Shown here piece after piece: positions 13,362 to 63,645 of a stretch of DNA of 64,000 nucleotides. The position numbers were made by a program, and so were the translations under genes. Position 1 is the first letter of the stretch. Every line of letters begins with the position of its first letter. The notes under the pieces were generated by a model. It was not told where the DNA came from and did no database searches. It saw only the letters and a list, made by a program, of their open reading frames with translations. Source of the stretch: Flavobacteriaceae bacterium (GTDB taxonomy: Bacteria; Bacteroidota; Bacteroidia; Flavobacteriales; Flavobacteriaceae); NCBI GenBank assembly GCA_041618535.1, contig JBFKFP010000001.1, positions 33,146 to 97,145 on the forward strand, read 5' to 3'.

Positions 13362-14129
13362 TTAATTGTTTCTTTCAGCTACTGCGGTTTTCACACTTTC
13401 ATAACCGCTAACCAGCGCCTTAAATATGCGATCGCGGAACGATCGGTCAAGGTCGTTCTCCACTTCACCTAGCAAAACATCAGCCTGAATACTTTGATTA
13501 TCCGTTCTGACGGTTTTCACCTTTATGATGTTCTTCATTGCCTTACTCAAAAGCTGGTCCACTTCAGAATCCAACTCATCTGGTCCTGAAAATTCCTCAT
13601 TTGGCATCAGCTCGGCAATCGTCTCCTCTTTAAGGTCAATTCCTGCTTGTGGACTTTCGAAGTCAGGTATCTTTTGTACACTTTTTTCCCGGGCTACGAC
13701 TGCATCTGTTTCGGGAACCGAAATTTTCTTTATCTGCTCCTTGGCTGAGCGAGGCGCCTTGTGCAGAGGCCCGTCCGCTTCTTTTTCATCCATTAACCCA
13801 GAAGCGATCTCCGTCTTGGCATTTTCTTCATCATTCCCGGTTTTTTGATCCGTAGCCTCCATATTTCCAGGTATTTGCCCACCTTCCTCACTCTCGACTA
13901 GCGGGATGACCTCCATAGGGGCCTCATCCTTTTGGCCCCAGTTAATCAATAAAATAATAAGAACTGCTGCTGCCGCCGCCGGGCCCATCCACCATAAAGC
14001 TGATTTTGAGGATTTTGGTTTTTCCTTATCGAGTTTGGCCTCAAGTGAATTCCAGGCATCCTGGCTCGGGGATATTGTCCTCGCCTCCAGCTTATCTTTC
14101 ATTTGTTCTTCGATCTTAAGGGGTGCCAT
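13362..14129 (-). CDS. Putative anti-sigma factor (single-pass membrane protein)
   Basis: 255 aa with one TM segment (WWMGPAAAAAVLIILLI) and a low-complexity acidic periplasmic part. It overlaps the upstream ECF sigma gene by 14 nt. Confidence 0.5.
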   Translation of the reverse strand: MAPLKIEEQMKDKLEARTISPSQDAWNSLEAKLDKEKPKSSKSALWWMGPAAAAAVLIILLINWGQKDEAPMEVIPLVESEEGGQIPGNMEATDQKTGNDEENAKTEIASGLMDEKEADGPLHKAPRSAKEQIKKISVPETDAVVAREKSVQKIPDFESPQAGIDLKEETIAELMPNEEFSGPDELDSEVDQLLSKAMKNIIKVKTVRTDNQSIQADVLLGEVENDLDRSFRDRIFKALVSGYESVKTAVAERNN

Positions 14130-14688
14130 GTCTTTTTAATTTTAGATTCTTAATGTTTTTCCGGAGAAGTTTCCTCGACTTGTACAATTGTGATTTTGAG
14201 GTACTCTCGGAAATGGAGAGCATCTCTGCAATCTCCTTATGCCTGTAACCTTCAATGGCGTACAAAACAAAAACCATTCGGTATCCTTCGGGTAACAGAT
14301 CTATCAGTTCCTGTATAAGTTCCAGATCGAAATCGTTATCCTCGATAGTATCATCCGTAAGATCTTCGGGTAGTTCATCATTAAACAAAATCTTTCTTTT
14401 GGCTCTTAGAAAAGAGATGGATTCCCTGGTCATAATACGACGGATCCACCCTTCAAAACTCCCATCATGCCTGAAGGACCCTATATGAGTAAACACCTTT
14501 AAGAACCCATTAAGCATGACTTCCTCGGCCTCCTGAATATCATTCACATAATAACGGCACACGCTAAGCATTTTAGGGGAATACCGCTCAAAGATCTTGT
14601 GCTGCGCTTCCCGACTGTTTTCTGTCGCGCGTTTAATTAGTTGCTTCTCGCTATTATGAAGTTGAATGACTTTCAAAAGCGGGTTCAT
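14116..14688 (-). CDS. RNA polymerase ECF-type sigma-70 factor
   Basis: 190 aa with a region 2 (..FERYSPKMLSVCRYYV..EAEEVMLNGFLKVF) and a region 4 HTH (YRHKEIAEMLSISESTSKSQLYKSRKLL). Confidence 0.85.
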   Translation of the reverse strand: MNPLLKVIQLHNSEKQLIKRATENSREAQHKIFERYSPKMLSVCRYYVNDIQEAEEVMLNGFLKVFTHIGSFRHDGSFEGWIRRIMTRESISFLRAKRKILFNDELPEDLTDDTIEDNDFDLELIQELIDLLPEGYRMVFVLYAIEGYRHKEIAEMLSISESTSKSQLYKSRKLLRKNIKNLKLKRHGTP

Positions 14689-21060: not shown

Positions 21061-21711
21061 ATGAAGAACATTTTTCTAATCGTGATGGCTTGTCTCTTTT
21101 GCTCAACCATCAATGGACAAACCAACCTATATGTTAATCCGGAGTTCGAAGCAATAGCCCTGGAACATAAAATTATTGCCGTTGTACCTTTTAAAACCCA
21201 GGTCACGCTCCGACCCAAGCAAATGAAAGACATGACGCCTGAGCAACTCGACAGGCTTGAAAAAGCGGAGGGAGAGGGCATTCAAACAGCTATGTACTCG
21301 TGGTTTTTAAAACGAAAGAAGCGCGGCAAACTCCAATCTATCGAAGTTCAGGATCCAAAGGTTACCACAGCGATGCTTGGCAAAATGGATATCTCATATG
21401 ACAACATAACAAACTACACGCCGAAGGAATTGGCTGAGATCCTGGAAGTTGATGCAGTGATCTCCGGCGAATTCGAAACGAATAAACCTATGTCTGAAGG
21501 AGCCTCTGCCGTTCTTGGATTGCTCGTTGGGTTTTGGGGCAGCACTAATAATGCAGTTGTCAATATGAGTGTACATAATGCAGCCGATGGCGTACTTCTA
21601 TGGAATTATAACAAGAAAGTAACCGGAAGTATCGGGAGCAGCCCGGAAGACCTTATCAATGTCCTTATGAGAAAAGCCTCACGCCGATTAGCCTATACAA
21701 AAGCTGATTAG
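21061..21711 (+). CDS. Secreted protein, function unknown
   Basis: 216 aa with an N-terminal signal peptide. No recognised motif. Confidence 0.5.
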   Translation: MKNIFLIVMACLFCSTINGQTNLYVNPEFEAIALEHKIIAVVPFKTQVTLRPKQMKDMTPEQLDRLEKAEGEGIQTAMYSWFLKRKKRGKLQSIEVQDPKVTTAMLGKMDISYDNITNYTPKELAEILEVDAVISGEFETNKPMSEGASAVLGLLVGFWGSTNNAVVNMSVHNAADGVLLWNYNKKVTGSIGSSPEDLINVLMRKASRRLAYTKAD

Positions 21712-21887: not shown

Positions 21888-22637
21888 ATGAAAAAAATAT
21901 GCTTCCTCAGCCTTCTTGCATTCGGTACGATTCTTAATTCAGGTGCCCAAACAGATACGGTTGTCAGCAGTCATGAAAATGAATGGCAATTCGAAGTTAC
22001 TCCCTATGTCTGGATAGCAGGATTCAGGGCGGTGACCGATTTCAGGCAGGGACTTAGTACCCAGGTTGAAGCCGACTTTTCAAAAATCCGCGAAAAACTT
22101 GAGTTAACCGGTTCTTTGCATGCTGAAGTTTCAAATGGCCGATTCTTTTTTATGGGAGACCTGATCTATTTCAGATCAGATAAAGGTGGTTTCCTTGATA
22201 CTGAGCCCACACAAACCCGATTGTTCATAGATCAATGGGCAGCAGAACTAGGAGGAGGATACAATTTTGTGAATAATGATAATGCCTTCCTGGTAGACGG
22301 ACTCATCGGCTGGCGGAATTTTAATATCGACAGCAGGTTAACGATAGACAGCCAGGAGGAATTTGACCGAAAGCTTATTGCAAACGATTTATTCGTGGGA
22401 GCAAGAATGAAAATTTACCAAGACCGGTGGAGTTTCATTTTGAGAGGGGATATGGGAGGATTCGGATGGGGTTCTGATTTGAGCTGGCGAATCGATGCGC
22501 TTGGCGGCTACCAGTTCAGTGAGCTTTTTACATTTAAATTTGGGTTACAAGCCTTGAGCATCGATTACAGGAAAGATACTTACGGTCTGGAAATGCTAAC
22601 AACTGGCCTGACCTTTGGTGGTGAAATCAATTTTTGA
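21888..22637 (+). CDS. Putative outer-membrane beta-barrel protein, function unknown
   Basis: 249 aa with a signal peptide, alternating aromatic/hydrophobic strands and a C-terminal ..FGGEINF. Confidence 0.5.
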   Translation: MKKICFLSLLAFGTILNSGAQTDTVVSSHENEWQFEVTPYVWIAGFRAVTDFRQGLSTQVEADFSKIREKLELTGSLHAEVSNGRFFFMGDLIYFRSDKGGFLDTEPTQTRLFIDQWAAELGGGYNFVNNDNAFLVDGLIGWRNFNIDSRLTIDSQEEFDRKLIANDLFVGARMKIYQDRWSFILRGDMGGFGWGSDLSWRIDALGGYQFSELFTFKFGLQALSIDYRKDTYGLEMLTTGLTFGGEINF

Positions 22638-37882: not shown

Positions 37883-37886
37883 TTGA

Positions 37887-37989
37887 GTTATCTATCCGGA
37901 AATTAATCCAGTAGAATTTAGCACCTTCTTTAAAGCTAAAGGGTTGCTAAGGCTTCACAGGGTCTATTCCCTCCACCTTTCTTGATAAC
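37887..37989 (-). promoter_or_regulatory. SAM-I (S-box) riboswitch aptamer
   Basis: The minus strand reads GUUAUCAAGAAAGGUGGAGGGAAUAGACCCUGUGAAGCCUUAGCAACC...AAGGUGCUAAAUUCUACUGG...CCGGAUAGAUAAC. This matches the S-box core (AUCAAGAG.GG.GGAGGGA..GGCCC.AUGAAGCC..GCAACC....GGUGCUAA.UCC....AGAU). P1 is GUUAUC/GAUAAC. Confidence 0.9.
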
Positions 37990-38064
37990 ATTTCAATAAG
38001 TTTTTGAACTTTCTGACCCCAATATTCGTAAAGATAATCCAGAAAAACAAATTTTATTTTTTAT

Positions 38065-39609
38065 TCAACTGTTCAGCAATTCAAATTTTTCCCTGATAAT
38101 CTCACCAACAGATTTGTTTTTTATCTTGCTTTCAAGCCATGAAATAATATCGAGATAGAGAAAAGCCCGGCGCTCATATGGATGATCTTCATAATCTCTC
38201 AGTTTGACCAGTAATTTATCGAATTCACCCTTGAGTTCATGCGGATAGATATCCCCTAAACGCCTTAAGAACTTGATCATTTCCTTTTGAACCTCATAAA
38301 GATCTTCCATCTTCAAAAGGAATTTATAGGTACTCCTGATAAGGGAATCGAGGTGATAATCCAAACCGGCCTCATAATGGGCAACCAAATTGAGAACTCT
38401 TGAAAAACAGAGAAGGTCCTCACGCATGGACAGGGATTTATTGGAGATAATCTTGTCGAGATATTCTATGCATTTACGGTTTTCACCCACCCCGAAATAA
38501 AGGCTGGCAATCTTGTAATAAAACACCATGACGTGATGCTCGTCAATCCTGTTGCCGAAGGTCTTTAGACCTTTTAGAACCTCGTCAACCAGCTTTAGCC
38601 CCTCTTCAAAGGAACCCTCCATAAAATGAAGATTGATCTTATTGGCATAGATATATAAAAAGATGAGGCCATCAAGGTTATCGTCGCGAGGAAAGTCCTT
38701 ATCGGAGGTGATGTCTTCCAGGTCTTTAAGCGCCTTTTTAAATCTTGAATGGTCTTTTATAAAAAACAATGCCTCAAGCAGATATTGATTTCCTCTGAGG
38801 AAGAAAACCGGGTTAAGGCTGATCATCTCCGGCTGGGTATAGAAGAGATCGACCCAACGGCGAGAATACTTATAACAGGACAGGAAATCCTGGGTCAGGA
38901 AACTATACCATAAATACGATTTATATAACCAAAGCTTTTCCCTGAAACCCAGTTCAGCGATATCATATTCAGGCAGCCTGCTTTTGAAATAGTGGGTGAT
39001 TTCCTTAAACTCCCTGTCATTCTTGACATAACCCGTCTTTAAAAAATGCCCGTATAACTGAAGCGACAGGTTCGACAACTTACTGGCTATCAAATTCTGC
39101 TGGCTTAAAACCTTCGCCTGTACGGTGAGTTCATCTGCACGGTTGCTGATACTTCTTGTGATGTACTGCGACTCAATCACCTTTTCCAGTTCTATGATTT
39201 CATAGGCAATATTCTTCTCCTCGTGAGCAATGGCCACATTTTTGGCTTTATCCAATATTTTCAGACTCTGCTTGTATAATCCTTTATGGTACAAGATGGT
39301 GGCAAAGTCCAGTTGCTCCCTGATCTGAATACGCACATTCTGACGGGATGGATTTAATCTGAGGCTGATAAGGATTTGTTTATACAGATGGGCCTTTAAA
39401 TTGGACAGCTGTCTTTTTTTAACAAAACCTTTTTTCAGAATAAAGTCCTCATCATAGGCTGACAACTTATCCAGGATGTTGAAAAGAGTAAGGAATTTTG
39501 AATCCTCATTTACGCCCAGACGACCCACATATAACTTGAATTGTCGCTTTTCCGATTTGGAGAGTGACTTTATCAGTACAAACAAATTATCTTTGGGCTC
39601 CTTAGTCAT
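38065..39609 (-). CDS. All-helical repeat (TPR-like) protein, function unknown
   Basis: 514 aa with no signal peptide or TM segment. It has a basic N-terminus (SKSEKRQFKLYVGR) followed by repeated helical hairpin-like segments. Confidence 0.5.
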   Translation of the reverse strand: MTKEPKDNLFVLIKSLSKSEKRQFKLYVGRLGVNEDSKFLTLFNILDKLSAYDEDFILKKGFVKKRQLSNLKAHLYKQILISLRLNPSRQNVRIQIREQLDFATILYHKGLYKQSLKILDKAKNVAIAHEEKNIAYEIIELEKVIESQYITRSISNRADELTVQAKVLSQQNLIASKLSNLSLQLYGHFLKTGYVKNDREFKEITHYFKSRLPEYDIAELGFREKLWLYKSYLWYSFLTQDFLSCYKYSRRWVDLFYTQPEMISLNPVFFLRGNQYLLEALFFIKDHSRFKKALKDLEDITSDKDFPRDDNLDGLIFLYIYANKINLHFMEGSFEEGLKLVDEVLKGLKTFGNRIDEHHVMVFYYKIASLYFGVGENRKCIEYLDKIISNKSLSMREDLLCFSRVLNLVAHYEAGLDYHLDSLIRSTYKFLLKMEDLYEVQKEMIKFLRRLGDIYPHELKGEFDKLLVKLRDYEDHPYERRAFLYLDIISWLESKIKNKSVGEIIREKFELLNS

Positions 39610-53260: not shown

Positions 53261-53290
53261 TAAAAAAAGGAATCCCCTCTCGATTCCTTT
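53261..53290 (-). terminator. Intrinsic terminator ending the DUF1080 operon
   Basis: Minus strand reads AGGAAUC-GAGAGGG-GAUUCCU (7 bp) followed by U7, about 30 nt after the stop at 53317. Confidence 0.85.
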
Positions 53291-53316
53291 TAATAAAAAC
53301 GCAACGGATTTAATTT

Positions 53317-54615
53317 TTACAGTTTTTTGATCTTGATGTTTCTGAACCAAACGGTATCATCATGATCTTGAAGGCCTATTTTTCCTGGTCCTACCGAACC
53401 AAAATTATCGATGTAAGGAGAGAATTTGCTGTTCGCTATCATCTCTTTCCACCTACTCGAACCCAGGTCAAAACTCAATACCATTTTCCCATTCATCCAA
53501 TGCTCAACTTTGCCCTGGTTTTTAACAATTCTAATCGCATTCCATTCATTGGCCCCCTTTGTCCGGCGCTCAGAACAAGGGATCAAATCGTATAAATCCC
53601 CAGATCTGTGTGATCTGATCATTCCGTCCTTCTGTCCCTGATCATGAAGAACCTGCATTTCTGGACTAGAGTTCCAACCCTCATAGTATTCGGGAATTTC
53701 CTGGACCGTGTAAAAAATACCACTGTTCCCATTTTCAGAAATTTTCCATTCCATCCTGAGCTCAAAATTTTCAAAGGCCTCATCAGTCACTATATCCAGG
53801 CCACCGTCACGAGCCTTGTTGATATCGGCATGGTAGAACAGTTTTCCACCAACCTTGTATTCAAAGTACTTGTCGTACCCATTAAATTTCAACATCCCGT
53901 CTTCAACAACCCATCGAGATCCTATCTCACCGGGTTTATTGTAGGTATGCCATCCATCGGTAGATTTACCGTCAAACAGTAATTCCCAGCCTTCCGCAAT
54001 TTCTTCTTCTGTAAGCTGATTCGAGTCCTGTTCTTCTTCATCCGCATCGCTTCCCTTCCACGGTGCGACATCCACTATTGAGGAGTTTTTAAAAAAATGA
54101 TCTGGAATAACTTCATAATCCTCACCATCTCTTGACCATTCGAGGACCAACAGAGGATCGTACTCACAAGGATAGTAGCTGAAATCAAAGACAGAAGGCC
54201 CTTTTTTAAGTTTTCTTCGTCCTGTTATTTCAGATTTGTCATGTTTTCCAAAATCAATAACGAGATCGACATTATTAAGAGAAATTCCAGCCTTGCCAGA
54301 ACTGATCATTCTGAAATAATAATCTCCATCTTCCGGTATTTCAATAACTCCCACACCTTTGACAAAGAAACTGTTCCAGCTGGTGCCGAAATCGGATGCT
54401 GAGTCCATGTTAATATTGTTAAATAAAATTCGCTCTTGCTCTACCTCAGGATCGGTATTTTCATCAATCCATTCGGAATTGATATTGATCAACAGAGCTT
54501 CATATCCCTGGTTCATAGGTTCTTTTTCGTTTGAATATTCAACTTTATCCTCTTTTTCCTTACATCCGAATACCACCCCCAGACTAAAAATCAGCAGTAG
54601 AACATATTTATTCAT
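53317..54615 (-). CDS. Lipoprotein: N-terminal PA14-like domain fused to DUF1080 (3-keto-disaccharide hydrolase-like) domain
   Basis: 432 aa with the lipobox VVFGC. The PA14-like segment is EDGDYYFRMISSGKAGISLNN. The C-terminal DUF1080 hallmarks are LFDGKSTDGW and GLQDHDDTVWFRNIKIK. Confidence 0.7.
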   Translation of the reverse strand: MNKYVLLLIFSLGVVFGCKEKEDKVEYSNEKEPMNQGYEALLININSEWIDENTDPEVEQERILFNNINMDSASDFGTSWNSFFVKGVGVIEIPEDGDYYFRMISSGKAGISLNNVDLVIDFGKHDKSEITGRRKLKKGPSVFDFSYYPCEYDPLLVLEWSRDGEDYEVIPDHFFKNSSIVDVAPWKGSDADEEEQDSNQLTEEEIAEGWELLFDGKSTDGWHTYNKPGEIGSRWVVEDGMLKFNGYDKYFEYKVGGKLFYHADINKARDGGLDIVTDEAFENFELRMEWKISENGNSGIFYTVQEIPEYYEGWNSSPEMQVLHDQGQKDGMIRSHRSGDLYDLIPCSERRTKGANEWNAIRIVKNQGKVEHWMNGKMVLSFDLGSSRWKEMIANSKFSPYIDNFGSVGPGKIGLQDHDDTVWFRNIKIKKL

Positions 54616-54625
54616 TTCAATTCAA

Positions 54626-55390
54626 TTATTTTATCTCTTTTATCTTAATATTTCTGAACCACACCTCGTCACCATGGTCCTGCAACCCGATATGCCCTAA
54701 GGTATATTTTCCAAAACCATTCCAGTCTTTAAATTTTGATCCTGCCACAAGATTTTCCCATTCTTCACCTGACAAGGAAAAGTTAAATGCCTTATTTCCA
54801 TTCATTTCCACCGAGGCCATATTAGAACGATGATCGACTTGCAGAATGCAGGTATTCCATTGATTGTATGGTTTTATCAAAGCGGGATCGCAAGCTATCA
54901 TGTCAAATAAGGAACCCGCAGCATGGGTTCCGTTTGCGGCAGTGCCCTCTTCATTATTGTCATTATCAAGAATTTGAATTTCAGGGCCCGTCAAGTACGG
55001 CTGGGAATAATCATCACTCTCAAAAACGCCCCAAAAAATACCGCTGTTCCCTCCTTTGGAAACCTTCCATTCAAGGGTCAGAATAAAGTTCTCAAACTTT
55101 TTCCTTGATATTATATTATGTGATCCCGGTTTCCCCGGAATAAAATGCATACTGCCATCCTGGATCTCCCAGGAATCTGAAATTTCAGAAGATCCGTATC
55201 CCCTCCATTCATCAAAATCAGTTCCATCAAACAAAATCAACCACTCCTGGTTTGAGTGATCAATTTCAGCGTTTTGGCCCTGACCAACTTCAGCCTTTGG
55301 GTCAAGATTTGGAGATAGTTCTTTCTTGCATGCAAACAATGCAAAAATCGAAAGAAGAGAAATCAATTTAATACGGTGTTTAACTTTCAT
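54626..55390 (-). CDS. DUF1080 (3-keto-disaccharide hydrolase-like) lipoprotein
   Basis: 254 aa with the lipobox ALFAC. Hallmarks are LFDGTDFDEW and GLQDHGDEVWFRNIKIK. Confidence 0.75.
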   Translation of the reverse strand: MKVKHRIKLISLLSIFALFACKKELSPNLDPKAEVGQGQNAEIDHSNQEWLILFDGTDFDEWRGYGSSEISDSWEIQDGSMHFIPGKPGSHNIISRKKFENFILTLEWKVSKGGNSGIFWGVFESDDYSQPYLTGPEIQILDNDNNEEGTAANGTHAAGSLFDMIACDPALIKPYNQWNTCILQVDHRSNMASVEMNGNKAFNFSLSGEEWENLVAGSKFKDWNGFGKYTLGHIGLQDHGDEVWFRNIKIKEIK

Positions 55391-56441
55391 CCAATCCCAA
55401 TATTGATTTTAACTGATCATCGTCCACATCTCCCCCGGCGAAATCGTCAAAGGCCTTTTCGGTGGCCTCGATAATATGGCGTTTTATAAACGGGGCCCCT
55501 TCCCTGGCTCCCTGCTCTGGGCTTTTAATAACACACTCCCATTCCAGAACCGCCCAGACATCACATCCGTATTCGGTCAATTTTGAAAAGATCGTTTTAA
55601 AATCGACCTGCCCGTCACCTGGTGACCGATATCGCCCTGCCCGGTCCCTCCAATCGTTGTAACCTCCAAAAGTTCCTTTCTTTCCCGTTGGATTGAATTC
55701 TGAATCCTTGACATGGAAGGCCTTGATATATTCGTGATAATGATCTATATATTGAATATAGTCGAGCTGTTGAAGAACGAAATGCGATGGATCATATAGG
55801 ATATTCACCGCCTTGTGATTCCCTGTCGCTGCCAAAAATCTTTCGAAAGTATCCCCATCGTGGATATCTTCTACCGGGTGCACCTCATAGCAAACGGCAA
55901 CACCATTATCCTCAAACGCATCCAGTATTGGTTTCCATCTTTTTGCGAGTTCCCTGAAGCCCATGTCGATAAGGCCTTTGGGCTGCTGCGGCCACGGATG
56001 TACGGCAGGCCAGAGCAACGAGCCCGAGAATGTGGCATGCGCTTTAAGTCCGAGTCTCTTACTGGCAACCGCTGCATGTTTCATTTGCTGGACCGCCCAT
56101 TCTGTCCTTCCCTTGTAATTGCCTTTGAGATGATCAGGCGCAAACAGGTCGAACATTATATCATGAGCGGGATGAACTGCAACCAGCTGTCCCTGGATGT
56201 GAGTGGACAATTCGGTGATCTCAAGGCCATAGCTATTGATTTTTCCCTTAAGCTCATCACAATAGGTCTGGCTTTCCGAAGCTTTCTCCAGATCGATAAG
56301 CCGTGAATCAGTGGTAGGGATTTGCACGCCGAGGTAACCCAGGTCACTGGCCCATTTACAAAGGCCATCCAGGGTATTGAAGGGCGGCTGTTCATCCATA
56401 AACTGGGCAAAAAATATGGCGGGTCCTTTAATCGTTCTCAT
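55380..56441 (-). CDS. Xylose-isomerase-like TIM-barrel protein (sugar phosphate isomerase/epimerase family), cytoplasmic
   Basis: 353 aa with no signal peptide. The pattern of conserved E/H/D residues fits the AP-endonuclease-2/IolE-like barrel (YEVHP, LYDPSH, HVKD, EWE). Confidence 0.7.
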   Translation of the reverse strand: MRTIKGPAIFFAQFMDEQPPFNTLDGLCKWASDLGYLGVQIPTTDSRLIDLEKASESQTYCDELKGKINSYGLEITELSTHIQGQLVAVHPAHDIMFDLFAPDHLKGNYKGRTEWAVQQMKHAAVASKRLGLKAHATFSGSLLWPAVHPWPQQPKGLIDMGFRELAKRWKPILDAFEDNGVAVCYEVHPVEDIHDGDTFERFLAATGNHKAVNILYDPSHFVLQQLDYIQYIDHYHEYIKAFHVKDSEFNPTGKKGTFGGYNDWRDRAGRYRSPGDGQVDFKTIFSKLTEYGCDVWAVLEWECVIKSPEQGAREGAPFIKRHIIEATEKAFDDFAGGDVDDDQLKSILGLDES

Positions 56442-56447
56442 AATATG

Positions 56448-57596
56448 TCATTCATCAATATCTATCCAAATATTTCCATTGGCATGCGATTCCACAGCCT
56501 TCTCAATAAAGCTCATGCCTCTTACACCGTCTACGACAGTTGGGAATTCACCATGGTCATAGGGTTCTCCCTTGATAGCCCTTGCAACCCCTTTATATAT
56601 ATTCCCCATGGCATCGAAGATCCCTTCAGGATGTCCGGGCGGCAATTTAGTGCCATCCAGGGAGATCTCGCTGTTATAAGAATGTCCCGGTTTTAGAACC
56701 CTTAACGGTTTCCCGTCTTCCATGAGGTAAAGGTAATTGGGGTTCTCCTGTTCCCATTTCAGTCCTGCCCTGTCGCCATACACCTTGACGGTAAAATTAT
56801 TCTCTTCACCAGTGGCGATCTGGCTGGCACAAATGACTCCTTTTACATCATTTTCACATCTCAACAGCACCGTGCCATCTATATCCATTTTATTATCCTC
56901 GTAGAGATAATTCAGATCGGCAAGAACCTTCCTGATCCTGACCCCTGAGACATATTCTAGCATATCAAAGGCATGTGTTCCTATATCACCAATGCAGCAG
57001 CTGATCCCGGATTTCTCCGGATTTAATCGCCAGGTGCTGGCACGTTTCTCCTGGTCATGGATTATAGGGTTTATCCAACCCTGGTAATATTGAGCATCGA
57101 TCTTCTGCACTTTACCGATCTCCCCTTTCGCTATCATCTCCCTCATCTGCCTGATCATTGGATAACCTGTGTAAGTATAGGTCACGGCAAAAATTGCATT
57201 GGCCATCTTCAAGGTATTTTGAAGATCGATGGCCTCATTGTAATTAAGGGTCATGGGTTTCTCACAAATGACATTAAATCCATTCTCAAGAAGTTTTTTA
57301 GCCATGGGATAATGAAGGAAATTTGGCGTTAGCACAGACACTATCTGCATGCGCTGATCTGAAGGCAGTTTTAGCTCTTCGGTCACAAGCTGATCGAGGT
57401 CGGCATAAACGCGGTTGGTAGGAATTCCTATTTTTTCCGCAAAGGCAATGCTCTCATGATGTTGTGGGTTGAACACCCCGCCCACTAAAGCGTATTTATC
57501 GTACATGGCCGAGGCTACACGGTGCAGTATGCCTATCAGTGAATCGCCACCGCCGCCAAGTATACCAAGTCTTATCTTATTACCCATTCGATGCAA
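56448..57596 (-). CDS. Gfo/Idh/MocA-family NAD(P)-dependent oxidoreductase, cytoplasmic
   Basis: 382 aa with an N-terminal Rossmann fold (IRLGILGGGGDS) and the EKP motif (ICEKPMT). Confidence 0.85.
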   Translation of the reverse strand: MHRMGNKIRLGILGGGGDSLIGILHRVASAMYDKYALVGGVFNPQHHESIAFAEKIGIPTNRVYADLDQLVTEELKLPSDQRMQIVSVLTPNFLHYPMAKKLLENGFNVICEKPMTLNYNEAIDLQNTLKMANAIFAVTYTYTGYPMIRQMREMIAKGEIGKVQKIDAQYYQGWINPIIHDQEKRASTWRLNPEKSGISCCIGDIGTHAFDMLEYVSGVRIRKVLADLNYLYEDNKMDIDGTVLLRCENDVKGVICASQIATGEENNFTVKVYGDRAGLKWEQENPNYLYLMEDGKPLRVLKPGHSYNSEISLDGTKLPPGHPEGIFDAMGNIYKGVARAIKGEPYDHGEFPTVVDGVRGMSFIEKAVESHANGNIWIDIDE

Positions 57597-57597
57597 T

Positions 57598-58827
57598 TTA
57601 GGCGTTATACTCTACTTTTTCGTTCTTAAACAGAATTGCAAACAGCAGCAGGACCACCACAGCAAAGATTGCAGGGAATGTCCATATATCCTGCCATGCA
57701 TGCAGGTTTTCTGAAACCAGGTTCTTATCAGCGATCTTTCCGGCCACCCAAAAACCAATAAGCATACCTACGCCATAAGTGGCCAAGGTAATAAGTCCCT
57801 GTGCAGCGCTTTTAACTTTTTCCCCTGCCTTAGAATCGGTATAGATCTGGCCGGAAACAAAGAAAAAGTCATAGCAAATACCGTGCAGTGCTATTCCGAT
57901 GACAAGCATAAAGAAGAGATCGCCGGCATTCCCGAACGCGAATAGCAAATACCGGATTCCCCATGCGAGCATACCAAATAAAATAGTCTTTTTGAACCCA
58001 TACCTCTTAAAGAAAAACGGCAGCAAAAGCATAAAGCCGACTTCCGAAATCTGTCCTAGTGATGCCCAGGCTGTTGAATTCTCCACCTGCAATTCGGTAA
58101 GAAAAGGACTGATATTCTGATAGTAGAATGCCAGAGGAATACAAATCAGAACTGACGATATAAAGAATACCAGGAAATTCTTATCCTTTAACAGTCCCAG
58201 GGCCTCAAGGCCCAGGATATCGGACAGGCTGGCACTCTCGCCCTTGGTTTTGCTCGGGGGTGTTTTAGGAAGTGTAAAACTAAACACTCCCAGAATTGCG
58301 GAGGCTATGGCCACCATAAAAAATGTGTTCGATAACATTCCCTGAGCAATATTTTCCATAGAATCCCATTTGAAAGCGAAACTGATCAACAGGCCGGCAA
58401 CAATCCATCCAATGGTTCCAAATACGCGCACAACTGGGAACTCCTTGGCGGGATCGCTCATCTGGTTAAATGAGACCGAATTTACCAGGGCCAATGTTGG
58501 CATATACAGGATCATGTATCCCAAAACATAGGGATAAAAGCCCGCAAAGTCCGAAACTTGCGACATCTGGTACATCAGCACTGCTCCAACCAGGTGCAGA
58601 AAACCTAAAATACGCTCCGCATTGAAATACCGGTCTGCGATGAGCCCAATGATAAAAGGCGCTATTATTGCTCCCCAGGACTGGGTGGAATAGGCCATTG
58701 CGGTCTCACCGCCTGTGGCGCTCAGGTTGTTACCCAGGTATGCTCCCATGGTCACAAACCATCCGCCCCATATGAAGAATTCAAGGAACATCATAAGGGA
58801 CAGCTGAAATTGCACAGATCTTTTCAT
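57598..58827 (-). CDS. MFS transporter, nucleoside:H+ symporter (NHS)-like family
   Basis: 409 aa with about 12 TM segments. The N-terminus (QLSLMMFLEFFIWGGWFVTMG) is typical of the NupG/XapB-like family. Confidence 0.7.
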   Translation of the reverse strand: MKRSVQFQLSLMMFLEFFIWGGWFVTMGAYLGNNLSATGGETAMAYSTQSWGAIIAPFIIGLIADRYFNAERILGFLHLVGAVLMYQMSQVSDFAGFYPYVLGYMILYMPTLALVNSVSFNQMSDPAKEFPVVRVFGTIGWIVAGLLISFAFKWDSMENIAQGMLSNTFFMVAIASAILGVFSFTLPKTPPSKTKGESASLSDILGLEALGLLKDKNFLVFFISSVLICIPLAFYYQNISPFLTELQVENSTAWASLGQISEVGFMLLLPFFFKRYGFKKTILFGMLAWGIRYLLFAFGNAGDLFFMLVIGIALHGICYDFFFVSGQIYTDSKAGEKVKSAAQGLITLATYGVGMLIGFWVAGKIADKNLVSENLHAWQDIWTFPAIFAVVVLLLFAILFKNEKVEYNA

Positions 58828-58845
58828 CTAATATAATTGAGTTAG

Positions 58846-59841
58846 TTAGTCTAATTTCTTTGCGGCGCTGATCAAAAGGTCACGGGTTGCGATCAGTCCA
58901 TCTTCCTCGCTTAATCTATCTCCTTCGTATTCCACACCTATGTAACCGCTATAACCGGCCTCTTTCACAATATCAAGCATTCTTAGATAATCTATAGTGG
59001 TTTCGTTACCGTCGGAATCAAAATCATAGGACTTCGCACTCACAGCCTTGGCACTCGGCATCATGAGTTCGATACCTTCATATTTATCTGGGTATGTTTC
59101 TTCACATTCACCCCAATCTTCTCCGTCTTTACGCTTTACGCACCAATTCCCGAAATCCGGAAGGGTTCCGCAATTATCCATATCGACCGTCCTGATAGCT
59201 TCCATAAGTATTGGAGGAACGGATGACAGCCAGCCATGGTTTTCACATAGAACATCGATATTTTTTGTGGCTGCGTATTCAGAAAGTTTTTTCAACCCAT
59301 CTACAACGGTCAATTTCCATATCTCAGGATCATTTGTTCCAAAGGTATTGACCCTTATGGCATGACAACCAAGCTCCGCGGCCGCATCCACCCATTTTTT
59401 GTGATTCTCTACCGCCAGGTTTCGTGCATCTTCATCCGGATCGGCGAGATCCCCTTCATCATCAACCATGATCAGGACATTTCGAATACCTGCAGCCTCG
59501 CTTTCCTGCTTAAGTCGTGCGATGATCTGTCGCAATCCTTCTTCCTTATCTTCATATTTCCCTAGTTCACCACTGTATAATTGAGATACATACTCCACAC
59601 CTTCAAATTCCCAGGACTTAGCCAATTTAGCAAAGTCAAAAGGACTTACTTCCCCATTTTCAATCATTCTGTGAATCGACCACTGCGCCAATGATAATTT
59701 AAAGAAAGGTTCTTTGGTCATCTCCAGTTCAGCTGTAACGTCTTTAACTTCATTTTTTTGTTCCTGCTTACAAGATACTAGAATGATCAACAGGAAAATT
59801 GAGAGTATCTTAAACTTTTTTGAATAATTGTGAATTTTCAT
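58846..59841 (-). CDS. Exported (lipoprotein) xylose-isomerase-like TIM-barrel protein
   Basis: 331 aa with the lipobox ILVSC. Barrel motifs (CHAIRVNTFG, LCENHG, GYIGVEYEG). Confidence 0.7.
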   Translation of the reverse strand: MKIHNYSKKFKILSIFLLIILVSCKQEQKNEVKDVTAELEMTKEPFFKLSLAQWSIHRMIENGEVSPFDFAKLAKSWEFEGVEYVSQLYSGELGKYEDKEEGLRQIIARLKQESEAAGIRNVLIMVDDEGDLADPDEDARNLAVENHKKWVDAAAELGCHAIRVNTFGTNDPEIWKLTVVDGLKKLSEYAATKNIDVLCENHGWLSSVPPILMEAIRTVDMDNCGTLPDFGNWCVKRKDGEDWGECEETYPDKYEGIELMMPSAKAVSAKSYDFDSDGNETTIDYLRMLDIVKEAGYSGYIGVEYEGDRLSEEDGLIATRDLLISAAKKLD

Positions 59842-59965
59842 GGCTTAAAAGTAAGGAATCATATAAAATTTTAAGAAGGGAAATTAAAATTTTACGGATA
59901 AGATAATTACTTTAGTGGGCAATGTGAATAATTTTATCAAAACCTCACTTTCTAAAACGCATTGA

Positions 59966-61693
59966 ATGAATAACTCAAAGGTCAACCTCATTCAGGAGGA
60001 GTATGATGCCATTGTTGTCGGGACCGGGATTTCCGGTGGCTGGGCAGCCAAAGAACTATGTGAAAATGGTTTAAAAACCCTGGTGCTGGAACGCGGACGA
60101 ATGGTTAAACATATAGAAGATTATCCAACCGCAAACCTCGATCCCTGGGACATGCCTAACGGGGGAGCTCCCAGCCGAAAAACGAAGGAGCGCAAATTCA
60201 AACAACACCGCACTGGATATACAACAGATGAACGCTGCCAGCATTTCTTTGTTGATGATATCACACATCCCTACAACGAAGATCGCCGCTTCGATTGGAT
60301 GCGAGGCTACCAGGTGGGGGGTCGATCCCTGGTTTGGGGCCGCCAGAGTTACAGATTGGGCGATATAGATTTTACAGCAAACAAACGGGATGGGATTGCT
60401 GTTGACTGGCCGGTCAGATATGCCGACATAAAACCCTGGTACGACCTTGTTGAAGAATTCATCGGGGTAAGCGGTGAAAATCTAGGATTAAATGAGATCC
60501 TTCCGGATGGAAAATTTCTCAAACCCATGAACTTGAATTGCGTTGAGGAAAAACTCAAAACCACCATTGCTAATGAATATGATGACGGCCGTGTCCTGAC
60601 AATAGGCAGAACAGCTCATATTACTGAAGGCACTAAACCCGGTCTGGGAAGGAGTACCTGCCAATACAGGAACAGGTGCATGAGAGGCTGTCCGTATGGT
60701 GCATATTTCAGCAGTAATTCATCAACATTGCCTACGGCTGATGCAACGGGAAACATGACCCTGAGGCCGAATTCTATCGTATACGAGGTGGTTTACGACG
60801 ACAGCAAGAAACGGGCAACAGGTGTCCGGATCATCGATGCTGAGACCAAAGAAAAAATAGAGTATAAGGCCAAGATTATTTTCCTCTGTGCTTCCGCAAT
60901 TGCTTCAACTTCAATTTTACTTCAGTCTAAATCGGACAGGTTTCCAAACGGACTAGGCAATGATAGTGGAGAATTGGGACATAATATTATGGACCACCAT
61001 TTTCATGTTGGAGCCTCTGCAATTGCTGAAGGATTTGAAGACCGGATTAACAAGGGACGCAGAGCAAATGGCATTTATATTCCACGATTCAGAAATGTTG
61101 GCGGGAAAACCGACCAGAAGAACTTTATAAGAGGTTACGGATACCAGGGCGGTGCCACCAGAGGGAGCACAAGCCAACTTGTAGCTGAAATGCGTTATGG
61201 AGAAGACCTGAAAGAAGCTATCCTGAAGCCTGGTCAGTGGAGAATCAGTCTTTCCGGATTCGGTGAGGCTCTTCCAAATCACAATAACCGCATGTATCTC
61301 GATTATGAAAAGCTGGATGAATGGGGATTACCGACGGTGACCTTTGACGCGGCATTCGGTGAAAATGAAGATAAAATGAGGATTGATATGAGAAACCAGG
61401 CGGTGGAAATGCTCAACAAAGCAGGCTTTAAAAATGTAGTGGGGCATGATGATCGTAAAAAATATGCCATGGGTCTGGGTATCCATGAAATGGGAACAGC
61501 ACGAATGGGGCATGATCCTAAAACTTCGGTTCTTAACAAGTGGAATCAGATACATGCCTGCCCGAATGTATATGTAACAGACGGTTCTTTTATGACCTCG
61601 GCCGGCTGCCAAAACCCGTCTCTTACCTATATGGCATTCACAGCCAGGGCCGCCAACCATGCCGCCGGGGAATTCAAAAAAAAGAACATCTAA
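59966..61693 (+). CDS. GMC-family FAD-dependent oxidoreductase (no signal peptide)
   Basis: 575 aa with an FAD ADP-binding fold (YDAIVVGTGISGG) and the C-terminal GMC catalytic region (HEMGTARMG, NVYVTDGS). Confidence 0.85.
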   Translation: MNNSKVNLIQEEYDAIVVGTGISGGWAAKELCENGLKTLVLERGRMVKHIEDYPTANLDPWDMPNGGAPSRKTKERKFKQHRTGYTTDERCQHFFVDDITHPYNEDRRFDWMRGYQVGGRSLVWGRQSYRLGDIDFTANKRDGIAVDWPVRYADIKPWYDLVEEFIGVSGENLGLNEILPDGKFLKPMNLNCVEEKLKTTIANEYDDGRVLTIGRTAHITEGTKPGLGRSTCQYRNRCMRGCPYGAYFSSNSSTLPTADATGNMTLRPNSIVYEVVYDDSKKRATGVRIIDAETKEKIEYKAKIIFLCASAIASTSILLQSKSDRFPNGLGNDSGELGHNIMDHHFHVGASAIAEGFEDRINKGRRANGIYIPRFRNVGGKTDQKNFIRGYGYQGGATRGSTSQLVAEMRYGEDLKEAILKPGQWRISLSGFGEALPNHNNRMYLDYEKLDEWGLPTVTFDAAFGENEDKMRIDMRNQAVEMLNKAGFKNVVGHDDRKKYAMGLGIHEMGTARMGHDPKTSVLNKWNQIHACPNVYVTDGSFMTSAGCQNPSLTYMAFTARAANHAAGEFKKKNI

Positions 61694-61706
61694 ATAATCA
61701 TCAGTA

Positions 61707-62315
61707 ATGAAAAGAAGAGAAGCACTAAGAAATATAGGACTTACCACGGGATTTGTAATCGCCTCTCCGGGCCTGATCAGCTTACTGCAAAGCTGTAAAT
61801 CTGATATCGATCAATGGGCTCCCACTTTTCTTTCTGTTGAGGAGGGGATGGTCCTGACCCGGTTGGTCGATATCATCCTGCCCAAAACCGATTTACCTTC
61901 CGCCTCAGAGGTGAATGTCCCCCAGTTTATAGACAAGTATCTCGCAGAGGTACTGGAAGACGACGAGCAAGCAATGGCTAAAGAAGCCTTTGGGAATGTC
62001 ATAAATATCATCAAATCTGACTATAACGAAAAAATCGAAAAGGTCACGGATGAAGACTACAAGGACCTGTTAGATAAACATATGCTTATCAGGGGGCAGG
62101 ATGATGAGGAGAGAATGGCCAATCCTAAATCTGAGAAACCCACGAAATCGGAGTTCCTGAACCAGATAAAATGGATGACAGTCAATGCATATAAGACCAC
62201 CGAAGAAATCGGTGAAAATGTTCTGGCCTATGATCCCGTCCCGGCTGCTGACTATTGTGGTGATCTTGACGAACTGACTGGTGGGAAATCATGGTCTTTG
62301 CCGTCAGTATGGTAA
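61707..62315 (+). CDS. Gluconate 2-dehydrogenase subunit-3-like small protein with Tat signal / lipobox
   Basis: 202 aa. The N-terminus MKRREALRNIGLTTGFVIASPGLISLLQSC contains a twin arginine, an h-region and a Cys. It starts 14 nt after the GMC gene. Confidence 0.7.
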   Translation: MKRREALRNIGLTTGFVIASPGLISLLQSCKSDIDQWAPTFLSVEEGMVLTRLVDIILPKTDLPSASEVNVPQFIDKYLAEVLEDDEQAMAKEAFGNVINIIKSDYNEKIEKVTDEDYKDLLDKHMLIRGQDDEERMANPKSEKPTKSEFLNQIKWMTVNAYKTTEEIGENVLAYDPVPAADYCGDLDELTGGKSWSLPSVW

Positions 62316-63097
62316 ACCGTTCAGCTGTTTATACACTTATTGCCGCTCTGGCTCTTATATCATTGTCTTGTAAAGATTCAGGAAATCGTAATGAAAAAAT
62401 AGAGAAATGGGTTGAACTCTTTGATGGAGAGACACTCGATGGATGGCATCCGAAAGTAAGGGGCTATTCACTCAATGACAATCCGTTTAACACATTTAGA
62501 GTTGTTGATGGAGCCCTGAGGGTTTCTTATGACGATTACAAGAGTTTTGACAACCGGTTCGGACACATCTTTTTCAAAAATCCATATTCAGATTACCGGC
62601 TGAAACTTGAATACCGCTTTATCGGTGATCAGGCCCCGGGCGGAGAGAGTTGGGCTACCAAAAACAGTGGCATCATGATCCACTGTCAATCACCGGAAAG
62701 CATGACTCTGGATCAGTCCTTTCCCGTATCACTGGAGGTACAGCTATTGGGAGGAATCGAGAAGGGCGTTGCGCGACCTACAGCTAATTTATGCACCCCT
62801 GGCACTCACGTAAATATGGATGGTGTGCTCGTTACACAACACTGCATCAATTCCAGCTCCGATACCTTTTATGGGGATGAGTGGATAGAAGCGGAAGTAT
62901 TGGTTCTTAACGATTCTCTGATCAAACACTTCATCAACGGGGAAGAGGTCATCTCTTACACAGCACCCGTTATAGGCGGGGAATACAATACGCTTGAAAG
63001 TCGGAGCGGAGAAAAGCTTTCTTCCGGCTATATCTCTCTTCAGAGTGAAAGCCATCCCATTGAATTCAGAAAAATTCGCTTACTCGAACTAAAGTAA
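62309..63097 (+). CDS. DUF1080 (3-keto-disaccharide hydrolase-like) lipoprotein
   Basis: Lipobox ISLSC, with LFDGETLDGW and ISLQSESHPIEFRKIRL. The Met at 62309 is preferred over the track start at 62291. Confidence 0.75.
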   Translation: MVNRSAVYTLIAALALISLSCKDSGNRNEKIEKWVELFDGETLDGWHPKVRGYSLNDNPFNTFRVVDGALRVSYDDYKSFDNRFGHIFFKNPYSDYRLKLEYRFIGDQAPGGESWATKNSGIMIHCQSPESMTLDQSFPVSLEVQLLGGIEKGVARPTANLCTPGTHVNMDGVLVTQHCINSSSDTFYGDEWIEAEVLVLNDSLIKHFINGEEVISYTAPVIGGEYNTLESRSGEKLSSGYISLQSESHPIEFRKIRLLELK

Positions 63098-63105
63098 TAA
63101 CTGGG

Positions 63106-63645
63106 CTACTCAACGATAAATTTTCCACTCATCATGGCATAATGCGCCGGGAAACTACAGATAAAATCGTATTCACCTGGCTCAGAAGGAGCTGTGAACT
63201 CGATAGAGGTGGTTTCTCCTCCTCCGATCATTTTGGTATTTACCAAGACCGCATCCGTATCTTGAGGGATATAGCCGTTATCTCTTTCCGTTGCAGCTTT
63301 CGCAGCAAATTCCTCAACATTGACCCCTTGATTCAGGATGACCACATTGTGCCCCATAACGTTGACATCAAGCTTTCCGATATGACGCAGGGTTAACTTC
63401 ACCTTCTGTCCGGATTTAACACGCAATTCCTTTTTATTAAACTGCATGAGATCATTCCCGGTGATGACAAGGTTTGCCATTTCACTCTCAGAAGGTTTTG
63501 GGGTATCGGCCTTCTTTTCGATCTTTATAGACTTCTTTTCTTCTTCCTTCTTCTCTTCCCCGCCACAGGAAACCAGAGAAAGAGCAAAGAAGAAAACAAA
63601 TAAAATTTTGAGAACTTTCATAGTGTTTATTTTTTGAGTCCCCAA
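63106..63645 (-). CDS. Azurin-like type-1 copper protein (lipoprotein with K/E-rich tether)
   Basis: It aligns by eye to Pseudomonas azurin. VMGHN supplies the Gly/His ligands, and CSFPAHYAMM supplies Cys, His and Met with azurin spacing. Lipobox LVSC. The true start is probably the Met at 63621. Confidence 0.85.
   Translation of the reverse strand: MGTQKINTMKVLKILFVFFFALSLVSCGGEEKKEEEKKSIKIEKKADTPKPSESEMANLVITGNDLMQFNKKELRVKSGQKVKLTLRHIGKLDVNVMGHNVVILNQGVNVEEFAAKAATERDNGYIPQDTDAVLVNTKMIGGGETTSIEFTAPSEPGEYDFICSFPAHYAMMSGKFIVE

Follow-up and report, generated by a model that had tools for sequence, protein, structure and literature searches.

How might a bacterium cleave glycosides with a gene cluster that contains neither a glycoside hydrolase (GH) nor a SusC/SusD pair? 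The question is raised by ten open reading frames (ORFs) in a marine Flavobacteriaceae bacterium (assembly GCA_041618535.1, contig JBFKFP010000001.1, positions 33,146-97,145 of the forward strand; this whole stretch of 64,000 nucleotides is called the window here, and coordinates are given within it). The ORF list of the window resolves them into two divergent operons and an azurin gene, and agrees in position and strand with a first-pass annotation, whose domain calls Pfam bore out in every case and whose predicted lipoproteins and twin-arginine translocation (Tat) subunit show the lipoboxes and arginine pair where it had placed them. That annotation had proposed C3 oxidation and cleavage of a glycoside or cyclitol in the periplasm, uptake of a keto-sugar, and redox chemistry and isomerisation in the cytoplasm, by an uncharacterised system encoded in an accessory-looking block. 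The direction of the route and its two-compartment layout have held up; the label uncharacterised, the cyclitol option and the accessory block have not. Considering Pfam and NCBIfam/TIGR equivalog models, PDB sequence and profile searches, an AlphaFold2 model compared with Foldseek, and 80 GMC-anchored loci from related genomes (the basis of the locus counts below), we think it probable that small glucosides or disaccharides are processed by a non-hydrolytic 3-keto-glycoside pathway divided between two compartments, with the cluster encoding its oxidation, elimination, hydration and reduction.

The hydration step provides the firmest point of entry. Bitter et al. (2023, PMC10628242) described an A. 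tumefaciens operon in which genes for the hydratase AtHYD and the eliminase AtOGE accompany those for a Gfo reductase and a GMC dehydrogenase, GlycDH. The cytoplasmic TIM-barrel protein of the minus-strand operon (HYD; 55380-56441, AP_endonuc_2 domain) finds in PDB 8ro4, a structure with the title '2-hydroxy-3-keto-glucal hydratase', a match of 538 bits (E=1e-160) and 64.3% identity, with residues 1-350 aligned to 1-349, and is an AtHYD-type orthologue. The 8ro4 sequence is 84% identical to a protein of Rhizobium rhododendri, which agrees with an Agrobacterium/Rhizobium origin and fits its being AtHYD of the A. tumefaciens operon. A literature search on '8RO4' gave nothing useful; the structure is reportedly the subject of a 2024 paper by Kastner and colleagues. 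HYD has no signal peptide, lies with a Gfo/Idh/MocA gene 6 nt upstream, and is 64-65% identical to alphaproteobacterial copies that also adjoin a Gfo gene. It is present in 63 of the 80 loci, and the HYD-Gfo pairing recurs in Rhizobium, Croceicoccus and 62-67 of the 80 Flavobacteriaceae loci. From this strong homology, HYD is predicted to catalyse the cytoplasmic hydration of 2-hydroxy-3-keto-D-glucal to 3-keto-D-glucose.

Two proteobacterial plasmids carry related modules. On the Ti plasmid pTi6.2 of R. rhododendri (L082, 355329-374381), a sugar ABC (ATP-binding cassette) transporter and a LacI gene accompany HYD and Gfo, with no dehydrogenase or eliminase nearby; this looks like a stand-alone module for the salvage of glucal or 3-keto-glucose. 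Plasmid pCME4A9I of Croceicoccus marinus (L081) combines a TIM barrel resembling C-glycoside deglycosidases (CGDs), a DUF6379 protein resembling the CGD beta-subunit, a GH3 enzyme, Gfo, HYD, a small subunit, GMC and a permease of the major facilitator superfamily (MFS), and is a proteobacterial hybrid of C-glycoside-type, hydrolytic and 3-keto parts.

The same evidence bears on the suggestion that the cluster serves cyclitols. Catabolism of myo- or scyllo-inositol would account for weak similarities to IolE, IolG and scyllo-inositol dehydrogenase, but the equivalog scores fall far below their cutoffs (61.4 against 290 for IolE, TIGR04379; 55.2 against 355 for IolG, TIGR04380), the cluster holds no iolB/C/D/J-like genes, and HYD matches the glucal hydratase far better, at 538 bits, than it does IolE, at 40 bits. 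We give an inositol route next to no credence. Nor can the system be called uncharacterised, with HYD a close orthologue of 8ro4, the chemistry known from A. tumefaciens and Bacteroides thetaiotaomicron, and such clusters already reported (Price et al. 2022).

The gene beside HYD encodes a cytoplasmic Gfo/Idh/MocA oxidoreductase (56448-57596, minus strand; GFO_IDH_MocA), predicted to be an NAD(P)H-dependent 3-keto-glucose reductase. Its start is probably the ATG at 57587, which gives 379 residues as in the records of metagenome-assembled genomes (MAGs). The motifs EKP (at 112) and D-x-G-x-H (at 204) are intact, PDB 3v5n is matched at 5e-85, and a Gfo/Idh/MocA gene fills this slot in 67 of the 80 loci. 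Two subfamilies share the slot between the permease and HYD, one 62-84% and the other about 40% identical to the window Gfo (L013, L028, L037, L038, L046, L048, L052, L055-L062 and others are the loci listed for the two). The type of about 40% identity, found in Aquimarina, Leeuwenhoekiella and Robertkochia, is nearer to the proteobacterial partner of HYD (46-49%), and the pattern looks like non-orthologous or paralogous replacement.

This reductase also raises the possibility that the same four-step logic is directed at anhydro or intramolecular sugars (levoglucosan, for example, or a 1,5-anhydro sugar) rather than at true glycosides. The top NCBIfam match of the window Gfo is indeed levoglucosan dehydrogenase; its score against the LgdA equivalog NF052479, however, is only 90.7 bits against a cutoff of 650. 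The levoglucosan enzyme of this type is cytoplasmic and NAD-dependent. Although the levoglucosan operon has been called analogous to the A. tumefaciens one, its first oxidation is carried out by the operon's own Gfo-type dehydrogenase without any GMC protein (Bitter et al. 2023, PMC10628242), whereas here an exported GMC protein would be the oxidant. The DUF1080 lyases, the carbohydrate-binding PA14 module and the trehalases near related clusters likewise favour glycosides, and an anhydro-sugar pathway appears very unlikely.

What kind of enzyme would carry out the first oxidation? The plus-strand operon opens with a GMC flavoprotein (59966-61693; GMC_oxred_N/C, PF00732 and PF05199) that has the FAD-binding GxGxxG motif as GTGISG at residue 19, and among solved structures it stands closest to the large subunits of fructose dehydrogenase (FDH) and FAD-glucose dehydrogenase (FAD-GDH). 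Its cysteines C232-x5-C238-x3-C242 align with C-C-x4-C-x3-C of the FDH large subunit, a cluster which we take, from the FDH and GDH structures, to hold the 3Fe-4S ligands. The GMC protein has no signal peptide, and neither a Tat motif nor a lipobox occurs in any of 88 GMC copies. The next gene (61707-62315, plus strand) encodes a small 'hitchhiker' subunit with a Gluconate_2-dh3 domain (PF13618, 4e-24), an arginine pair at residues 3-4 and the sequence LQSC30. The arginine pair is found in 68 of 70 family members, and 66 of those 68 also have L-x-[SGAT]-C, the conserved cysteine having been located with a relaxed lipobox pattern. Because the Tat motif is joined by this conserved L-x-S-C, the small subunit is probably a Tat-exported lipoprotein, which would anchor the complex. 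The pair belongs, by sequence, to the FAD/3Fe-4S 'hitchhiker' dehydrogenases, a class that includes FDH, FAD-GDH, G3DH and LacABC. It follows from this class assignment, with its FDH and FAD-GDH relatives and Tat small subunit, that the enzyme should be a dehydrogenase in need of an external electron acceptor, unlike the O2-using CarA-type glycoside 3-oxidases to which the first-pass annotation had alluded.

The GMC protein has more than 8000 homologues; it is about 70-85% identical across many genera of marine Flavobacteriaceae and 48% identical to the Croceicoccus GMC near HYD. Tandem arrangements occur, as GMC-GMC-small in five loci (L006, L009, L012, L020, L051) and as GMC-small-GMC-small in L027, which suggests several substrate specificities served by one export and anchor partner.

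Do the two operons act together? The dehydrogenase pair might simply be a general periplasmic sugar or polyol dehydrogenase that feeds the respiratory chain, like the gluconate, sorbitol and fructose dehydrogenases, with an independent keto-sugar scavenging operon next to it. The identity of the nearest solved GMC relatives, fructose and glucose dehydrogenases, would fit this arrangement, as would the loci L041, L047, L063, L070 and L077 of Balneola and Fodinibius, where GMC and small subunit stand by themselves, and the occurrence of transporter, HYD and Gfo without any dehydrogenase in R. rhododendri. Conservation of gene order speaks against it. The GMC-small pair is present in 79 of the 80 loci, and some 60-68 preserve the six-gene core, with HYD-Gfo-MFS-exported TIM barrel divergent from GMC-small; across genera it is linked in roughly 60. 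In 14 Aquimarina loci, moreover, the genes form one co-directional operon, (cytochrome c)-GMC-small-TIM-MFS-Gfo-HYD-DUF1080, and genes that stay linked through such a reordering probably work as a single unit. In Croceicoccus, GMC and small subunit directly follow Gfo and HYD. Finally, fitness data from Caulobacter tie both halves of such a system to lactose use (Price et al. 2022, PMC9007349). Independent action of the two operons is therefore unlikely, and the discussion returns to a single 3-keto-glycoside pathway.

Within that pathway, candidates for the elimination step come from two families, the first being DUF1080. Proteins of the BT2157 type are 3-keto-alpha-glucoside lyases as well as 2-hydroxy-3-keto-glucal hydratases, and eight residues that line the BT2157 channel have been listed: E103, N134, E164, Q166, Y190, K245, Q273 and H275 (Nasseri et al. 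2024, bioRxiv 10.1101/2024.03.25.586180). The three DUF1080 copies of the cluster score 127-157 bits against PF06439, and each has a lipobox. The residues were mapped through an alignment to 8tda, in which all eight fell into register once the numbering was shifted by 9. The PA14-DUF1080 lipoprotein (53317-54615, minus strand; PF06439 6e-46, PA14 1e-5, lipobox VFGC18) keeps seven of the eight, DUF1080_b (54626-55390, minus strand; PF06439 3e-41, lipobox LFAC21) keeps six, including Q237-x-H239, and DUF1080_c (62291-63097, plus strand; PF06439 1e-36, lipobox SLSC27) keeps four, the E103 column falling in a poorly aligned loop. DUF1080_b also matches the BT2157 structures 8rr2 and 8tda at 2e-36. 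The first protein is thus predicted to be a periplasmic 3-keto-glycoside lyase and 2-hydroxy-3-keto-glucal hydratase with a carbohydrate-binding PA14 module, and the second a BT2157-like lyase/hydratase. DUF1080 copy number varies among loci; DUF1080_b occurs in 35 of the 80, and the PA14 form is rare (5 of 80).

DUF1080_c is divergent, with Y replaced by T, K by E and H by E, and its distribution follows that of azurin, being found in 20 of 27 loci with azurin, none of 21 with cytochrome c and 10 of 32 with neither. Its role may be redox-linked rather than that of a lyase. On metagenome contigs L116, L131 (947-2653), L136/L137 (10001-11425) and L153, a co-directional tandem of azurin followed by a DUF1080_c-like gene occurs with no GMC gene within 10 kb; the DUF1080_c-like partner in these tandems is 48-50% identical to the product of window positions 62291-63097.

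The second eliminase candidate is the exported TIM-barrel lipoprotein (58846-59841, minus strand; AP_endonuc_2, lipobox LVSC24), present in 68 of the 80 loci and the least certain part of the cluster. It is 45% identical to PDB 4ovx, its sole close solved relative, which a 36-sequence profile retrieved at 2e-96. The two share the motifs VSAKS, ENHG, PDFGN and EYEG; 4ovx itself is a structural-genomics entry for a Planctomyces limnophilus xylose isomerase domain protein without an assigned function, so that the match lends the lipoprotein a fold and no activity. The strongest profile matches after 4ovx are the catalytic subunits of CGDs, which are 3-keto-glycoside beta-eliminases (E 4e-10 to 1e-5, mostly over the C-terminal third), and weaker ones include tagatose 3-epimerases and the isomerase Art22. 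Foldseek returned the same order for the AlphaFold2 model (mean predicted local distance difference test score, pLDDT, 89.6), with template modelling (TM) scores of 0.77/0.94 for 4ovx and about 0.62-0.65 for DgpB-C and others. PDB 8qvc had been considered as a possible AtOGE structure among these entries and was discarded, being a Deinococcus C-glucosyl deglycosidase. The protein is put forward as a predicted periplasmic 3-keto-glycoside beta-eliminase of a 4ovx-like subfamily.

If the nearest characterised relatives of this barrel past 4ovx are CGD catalytic subunits, the whole cluster might instead deglycosylate C-glycosides, after the fashion of CarA/CarBC or DgpA/DgpBC, and the Croceicoccus relative with its TIM barrel and DUF6379 protein beside Gfo-HYD-small-GMC would lend this idea some substance. 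Yet no DUF6379 (CGD beta-subunit) ORF or domain was found in the cluster, whose tight operons (spacing of 18 nt or less) leave no space for one, similarity to CGDs is weak (E 1e-10 to 1e-5, for the most part in the C-terminal third), and the GMC protein is of the dehydrogenase type rather than a CarA/G3Ox oxidase. A C-glycoside system is a most improbable reading of these genes.

Between the exported and the cytoplasmic enzymes stands a permease of the NHS family of the MFS (57598-58827, minus strand; Nuc_H_symport 7e-117; TIGR00889 378 against a cutoff of 446), predicted to import the keto-sugar product. It occupies this position in 60 of the 80 loci; a different MFS protein takes its place in L002 and L037-L039. 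Which glycosides would be processed? The best guess is trehalose-like disaccharides and other glucosides. Glucosides or disaccharides are suggested by trehalase genes next to related clusters, by the PA14 module and by HYD being 64% identical to the glucose-series enzyme. The trehalases belong to GH37 (Pfam Trehalase, 3e-143) and lie a few kb from the GMC operon in eight loci (L034, L035, L042, L045, L046, L050, L052, L067); they hint either at trehalose-type substrates or at a parallel hydrolytic route.

The dehydrogenase would need a partner to receive its electrons. In LacABC-type enzymes the third component is a cytochrome c. The search for CxxCH in ORFs of at least 90 residues found no c-type cytochrome in the 64-kb window, and the gene that closes the cluster encodes an azurin lipoprotein (63106-63645, minus strand; Copper-bind 2e-19, lipobox LVSC27; start probably the ATG at 63621), a candidate acceptor for the GMC protein. 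Its score against the azurin model TIGR02695 is 103.8 bits, 1.3 bits below the cutoff of 105.1, and 18 azurin orthologues all keep the type-1 copper ligand motifs MGH99N and C163-x4-H168-x3-M172. Among the 80 loci, 27 carry an azurin lipoprotein, 21 a monoheme class I cytochrome c lipoprotein, none both and 32 neither, some of these 32 lying on truncated contigs. The cytochrome c gene opens the Aquimarina operon, and in Tenacibaculum it comes after the small-subunit gene in the same orientation. One group of MAGs has it convergent, at the place relative to the flanking fam23/14/12/13 genes that azurin takes in Leeuwenhoekiella. Azurin and the GMC operon converge in every case; its near-side neighbour is nearly always a GMC-cluster gene, and there are at least six different neighbours on its far side. 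The three acceptor states are interspersed on a neighbour-joining tree of the GMC proteins and require 14 Fitch changes. A literature search for azurin-linked dehydrogenases in Flavobacteria gave nothing useful. Whether azurin here replaces cytochrome c as the electron acceptor of the GMC protein is, in our judgement, an even question.

A number of observations weigh against the pathway as proposed, or against azurin's part in it. The distribution of azurin and cytochrome c is partly phylogenetic. In the window, some 50 nt separate the azurin gene from ilvA, which precedes it on the same strand. Of 35 metagenome loci anchored on azurin instead, each with at least 5 kb of downstream sequence, 16 had the GMC cluster and 19 did not, so that the linkage is frequent and not obligate; azurin may be a carrier of general use in respiration, or a neighbour by synteny. 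The GMC protein is only about 30% identical to its solved relatives, and these are fructose and glucose dehydrogenases. Its C3 regioselectivity on glycosides is therefore inferred from context alone, that is, predicted solely from linkage to HYD, the DUF1080 proteins and the TIM-barrel enzymes. For the exported TIM barrel, TM scores of about 0.62-0.65 fail to separate eliminases from sugar epimerases, and neither AtOGE nor BT2156/AL1 appears among its phmmer and profile matches (E<=0.01) or its top 50 Foldseek matches. Moreover, an invariant S268-A-K270 in its family takes the position of the beta7 His, presumably a metal ligand in CGDs. The window Gfo is just 35-36% identical to the proteobacterial Gfo proteins that stand beside HYD in Rhizobium and Croceicoccus. 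Lastly, a cytoplasmic hydratase alongside periplasmic DUF1080 hydratases is an apparent redundancy.

How, then, would the proposed pathway run? Judging from homology and context, the GMC protein would be carried over the membrane by the Tat-exported small subunit, probably also its lipid anchor, and would oxidise the C3-OH of a glycoside in the periplasm, the electrons leaving through FAD and the 3Fe-4S cluster. The azurin lipoprotein would then, with the same even chances, accept these electrons in place of the cytochrome c of relatives and hand them on to a terminal oxidase. Elimination of the aglycone to give 2-hydroxy-3-keto-glucal, which would be partly hydrated to 3-keto-glucose, may fall to the exported TIM barrel together with the BT2157-like DUF1080 lipoproteins, and the NHS-type permease, to go by the position of its gene, would import either product. 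In the cytoplasm, HYD is predicted to hydrate the imported product to 3-keto-glucose, and the Gfo/Idh/MocA protein would reduce this to glucose. The hydratase step, the class and export mode of the dehydrogenase, and the membership of the DUF1080 family are those parts of the scheme that are shown by strong homology.

A more elaborate version can be assembled from these parts. The GMC-small pair would be a Tat-exported, lipid-anchored 3-dehydrogenase in many marine Flavobacteriaceae, azurin its dedicated acceptor, swapped in evolution with the monoheme cytochrome c, the 4ovx-like TIM barrel a third class of 3-keto-O-glycoside eliminase, glucal itself the compound imported by the MFS permease, and DUF1080_c possibly redox-linked. 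Taken together as one statement, this is rather doubtful, and we offer it tentatively.

The layout of the locus is that of compact transcription units. Successive minus-operon genes are spaced by 10, -11 (an overlap), 6, 1 and 18 nt, and a hairpin at 53265-53291 (minus strand), with a 10-bp stem AAAAGGAATC...GATTCCTTTT followed by a T-run, resembles an intrinsic terminator and closes the operon; both spacing and terminator had been anticipated correctly by the first-pass annotation. In the plus operon a 13-nt gap is followed by an overlap of 25 nt, or of only 7 nt should DUF1080_c begin at the ATG at 62309, and DUF1080_c and azurin meet tail-to-tail with 8 nt between their stops. The divergent intergenic region between the operons, presumably holding their promoters, spans 124 nt (59842-59965) and includes a block, ATAAGATAATTACTTTAGT, common to the window, L003 and L032. 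A sigma-70 promoter scan gave 23 sites against 21.8 expected; Bacteroidota promoters differ from this consensus. Nine of 33 related loci (L016, L049, L053, L064, L067, L068, L069, L076, L080) carry an exact LacI-type palindrome with the core AAAACGTTTTCG and the extended forms CGAAAACGTTTTCG or GAAAACGTTTTA, and variants occur in L001, L025 and L042; the palindrome is absent from 59842-59965 of the window. Other recurrent neighbours, none of them in the window, are an inter-operon AraC regulator (22 loci), a Tat-exported Gfo/Idh/MocA protein (22), a Tat-exported TIM barrel (15) and the GH37 trehalase (8). Regulation of the related clusters is thus diverse, with the palindrome in some loci and the AraC gene in 22 others.

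Is the cluster an accessory island, as the first-pass annotation had it? Its GC content is the same as that of the rest of the window, and an arrangement of arg operon, cluster, azurin and ilv operon is common to several genera; recent horizontal acquisition was rejected on both grounds, which also run counter to the idea of an accessory block. Identical copies of the window proteins were found in two MAGs. The scanned upstream ORFs (40 of at least 150 residues, upstream of 46.4 kb) are housekeeping genes, among them PBP2/RodA, gldB, nadE, dnaG, queA, aroA and operons for aromatic, methionine and leucine biosynthesis. Seven ORFs at 46.4-52.9 kb read, from the ORF list, as arginine and proline biosynthesis genes, and the ORF that leaves the window beyond azurin is the C-terminus of ilvA. 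The statement that the window holds no GH or SusC/SusD domain is upheld for those 40 ORFs, the seven at 46.4-52.9 kb lying outside the domain scan. The companion claim, that it holds no regulator, needs amendment, for a LuxR-type response regulator (8164-8793) and an extracytoplasmic function (ECF) sigma factor (14116-14688) are present, though both are more than 38 kb from the cluster.

Other features of the window are incidental. A 255-residue ORF immediately downstream of the ECF sigma factor may be an anti-sigma factor, and an arylsulfotransferase (ASST)-like protein (PF05935, 1e-15) is encoded at 10896-12197 (plus strand) amid housekeeping genes. An ordinary S-adenosylmethionine riboswitch (RF00162, 85 bits) lies at 37885-37991 on the minus strand, upstream of methionine biosynthesis genes, and the window has no tRNAs. 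ORFs of 167-514 residues without a Pfam match at E<=1e-8 are found at 38065-39609, 12232-13332 and 13362-14129 on the minus strand and at 21061-21711, 21888-22637 and 368-871 on the plus strand.

Why should such a cluster matter? Marine Flavobacteriaceae are major degraders of algal carbohydrates. Non-hydrolytic 3-keto cleavage of glycosides came to be understood only in 2021-2024, through work on gut Bacteroides and a plant pathogen, and what appears to be a respiratory-chain-linked version is conserved in marine Flavobacteriaceae of many genera. Lacking both GH and SusC/D, the cluster is invisible to annotation schemes based on carbohydrate-active enzymes and polysaccharide utilization loci; if active, it would be an uncounted route in marine glycoside turnover. 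It also offers enzyme candidates, namely a possible new eliminase family and a GMC dehydrogenase, possibly coupled to azurin, of biosensor interest. The value lies in extension and annotation and not in a new principle; the cluster type and its chemistry are already known from the work of 2021-2024, and its logic is mostly predictable from published systems.

The comparison with those systems can be drawn feature by feature. With the A. tumefaciens operon the cluster shares the same four chemical steps, an orthologous hydratase, an adjoining Gfo reductase and a flavoprotein for the first step. It differs in that the eliminase candidates are exported lipoproteins of other families (4ovx-like TIM barrel, DUF1080) and not AtOGE, in the NHS-type permease interposed between periplasmic and cytoplasmic steps, in a Gfo protein of about 35% identity, in the Tat small subunit and in the neighbouring azurin. 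A parallel in gene content, compared by description, is the Caulobacter crescentus cluster, which has the same inventory and the same division between periplasm and cytoplasm. Clusters in which a LacABC-type dehydrogenase is joined by DUF1080, two 'epimerases', a reductase and a transporter have been described in C. crescentus, Pedobacter, Indibacter and Algoriphagus, and fitness phenotypes seen with glycosides such as lactose and salicin link these dehydrogenases to glycoside use in Caulobacter and Pedobacter; LacABC consists of three components (Price et al. 2022, PMC9007349), whereas the window has two dehydrogenase subunits and an adjacent azurin.

The BT2156-2160 and Alistipes AL1-5 systems (Liu 2021; Nasseri et al. 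2024) resemble the cluster in having periplasmic DUF1080 lyase/hydratases and a TIM-barrel lyase that act on 3-keto-glycosides with broad alpha/beta scope. Their oxidant, however, is a Tat-exported Gfo/Idh/MocA protein with tightly bound NAD (the BT2158 type), in place of which the window has a GMC dehydrogenase, apparently linked to the respiratory chain, and an additional cytoplasmic hydratase. A BT2158-type oxidant was considered for the window and rejected for want of a real homologue, the search for one having returned only a 34-bit match to the cytoplasmic Gfo and a score of 24.8 against a cutoff of 750 for NF058561. As to the dehydrogenase itself, the Gluconobacter FDH (PDB 7w2j) and the Burkholderia cepacia FAD-GDH (PDB 6a2u) share with it the GMC cysteine cluster, the lack of a signal peptide of its own and export as a Tat 'hitchhiker'; unlike them, the window enzyme, at about 30% identity, has no multihaem cytochrome c subunit, has a small-subunit cysteine whose conservation suggests a lipid anchor, and has the C3-OH of a glycoside as its likely substrate. 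Set against all of these systems, the variant features of the cluster are azurin, possibly instead of cytochrome c, a small subunit that is probably lipid-anchored, an uncharacterised family of eliminase candidates and an NHS-type transporter.

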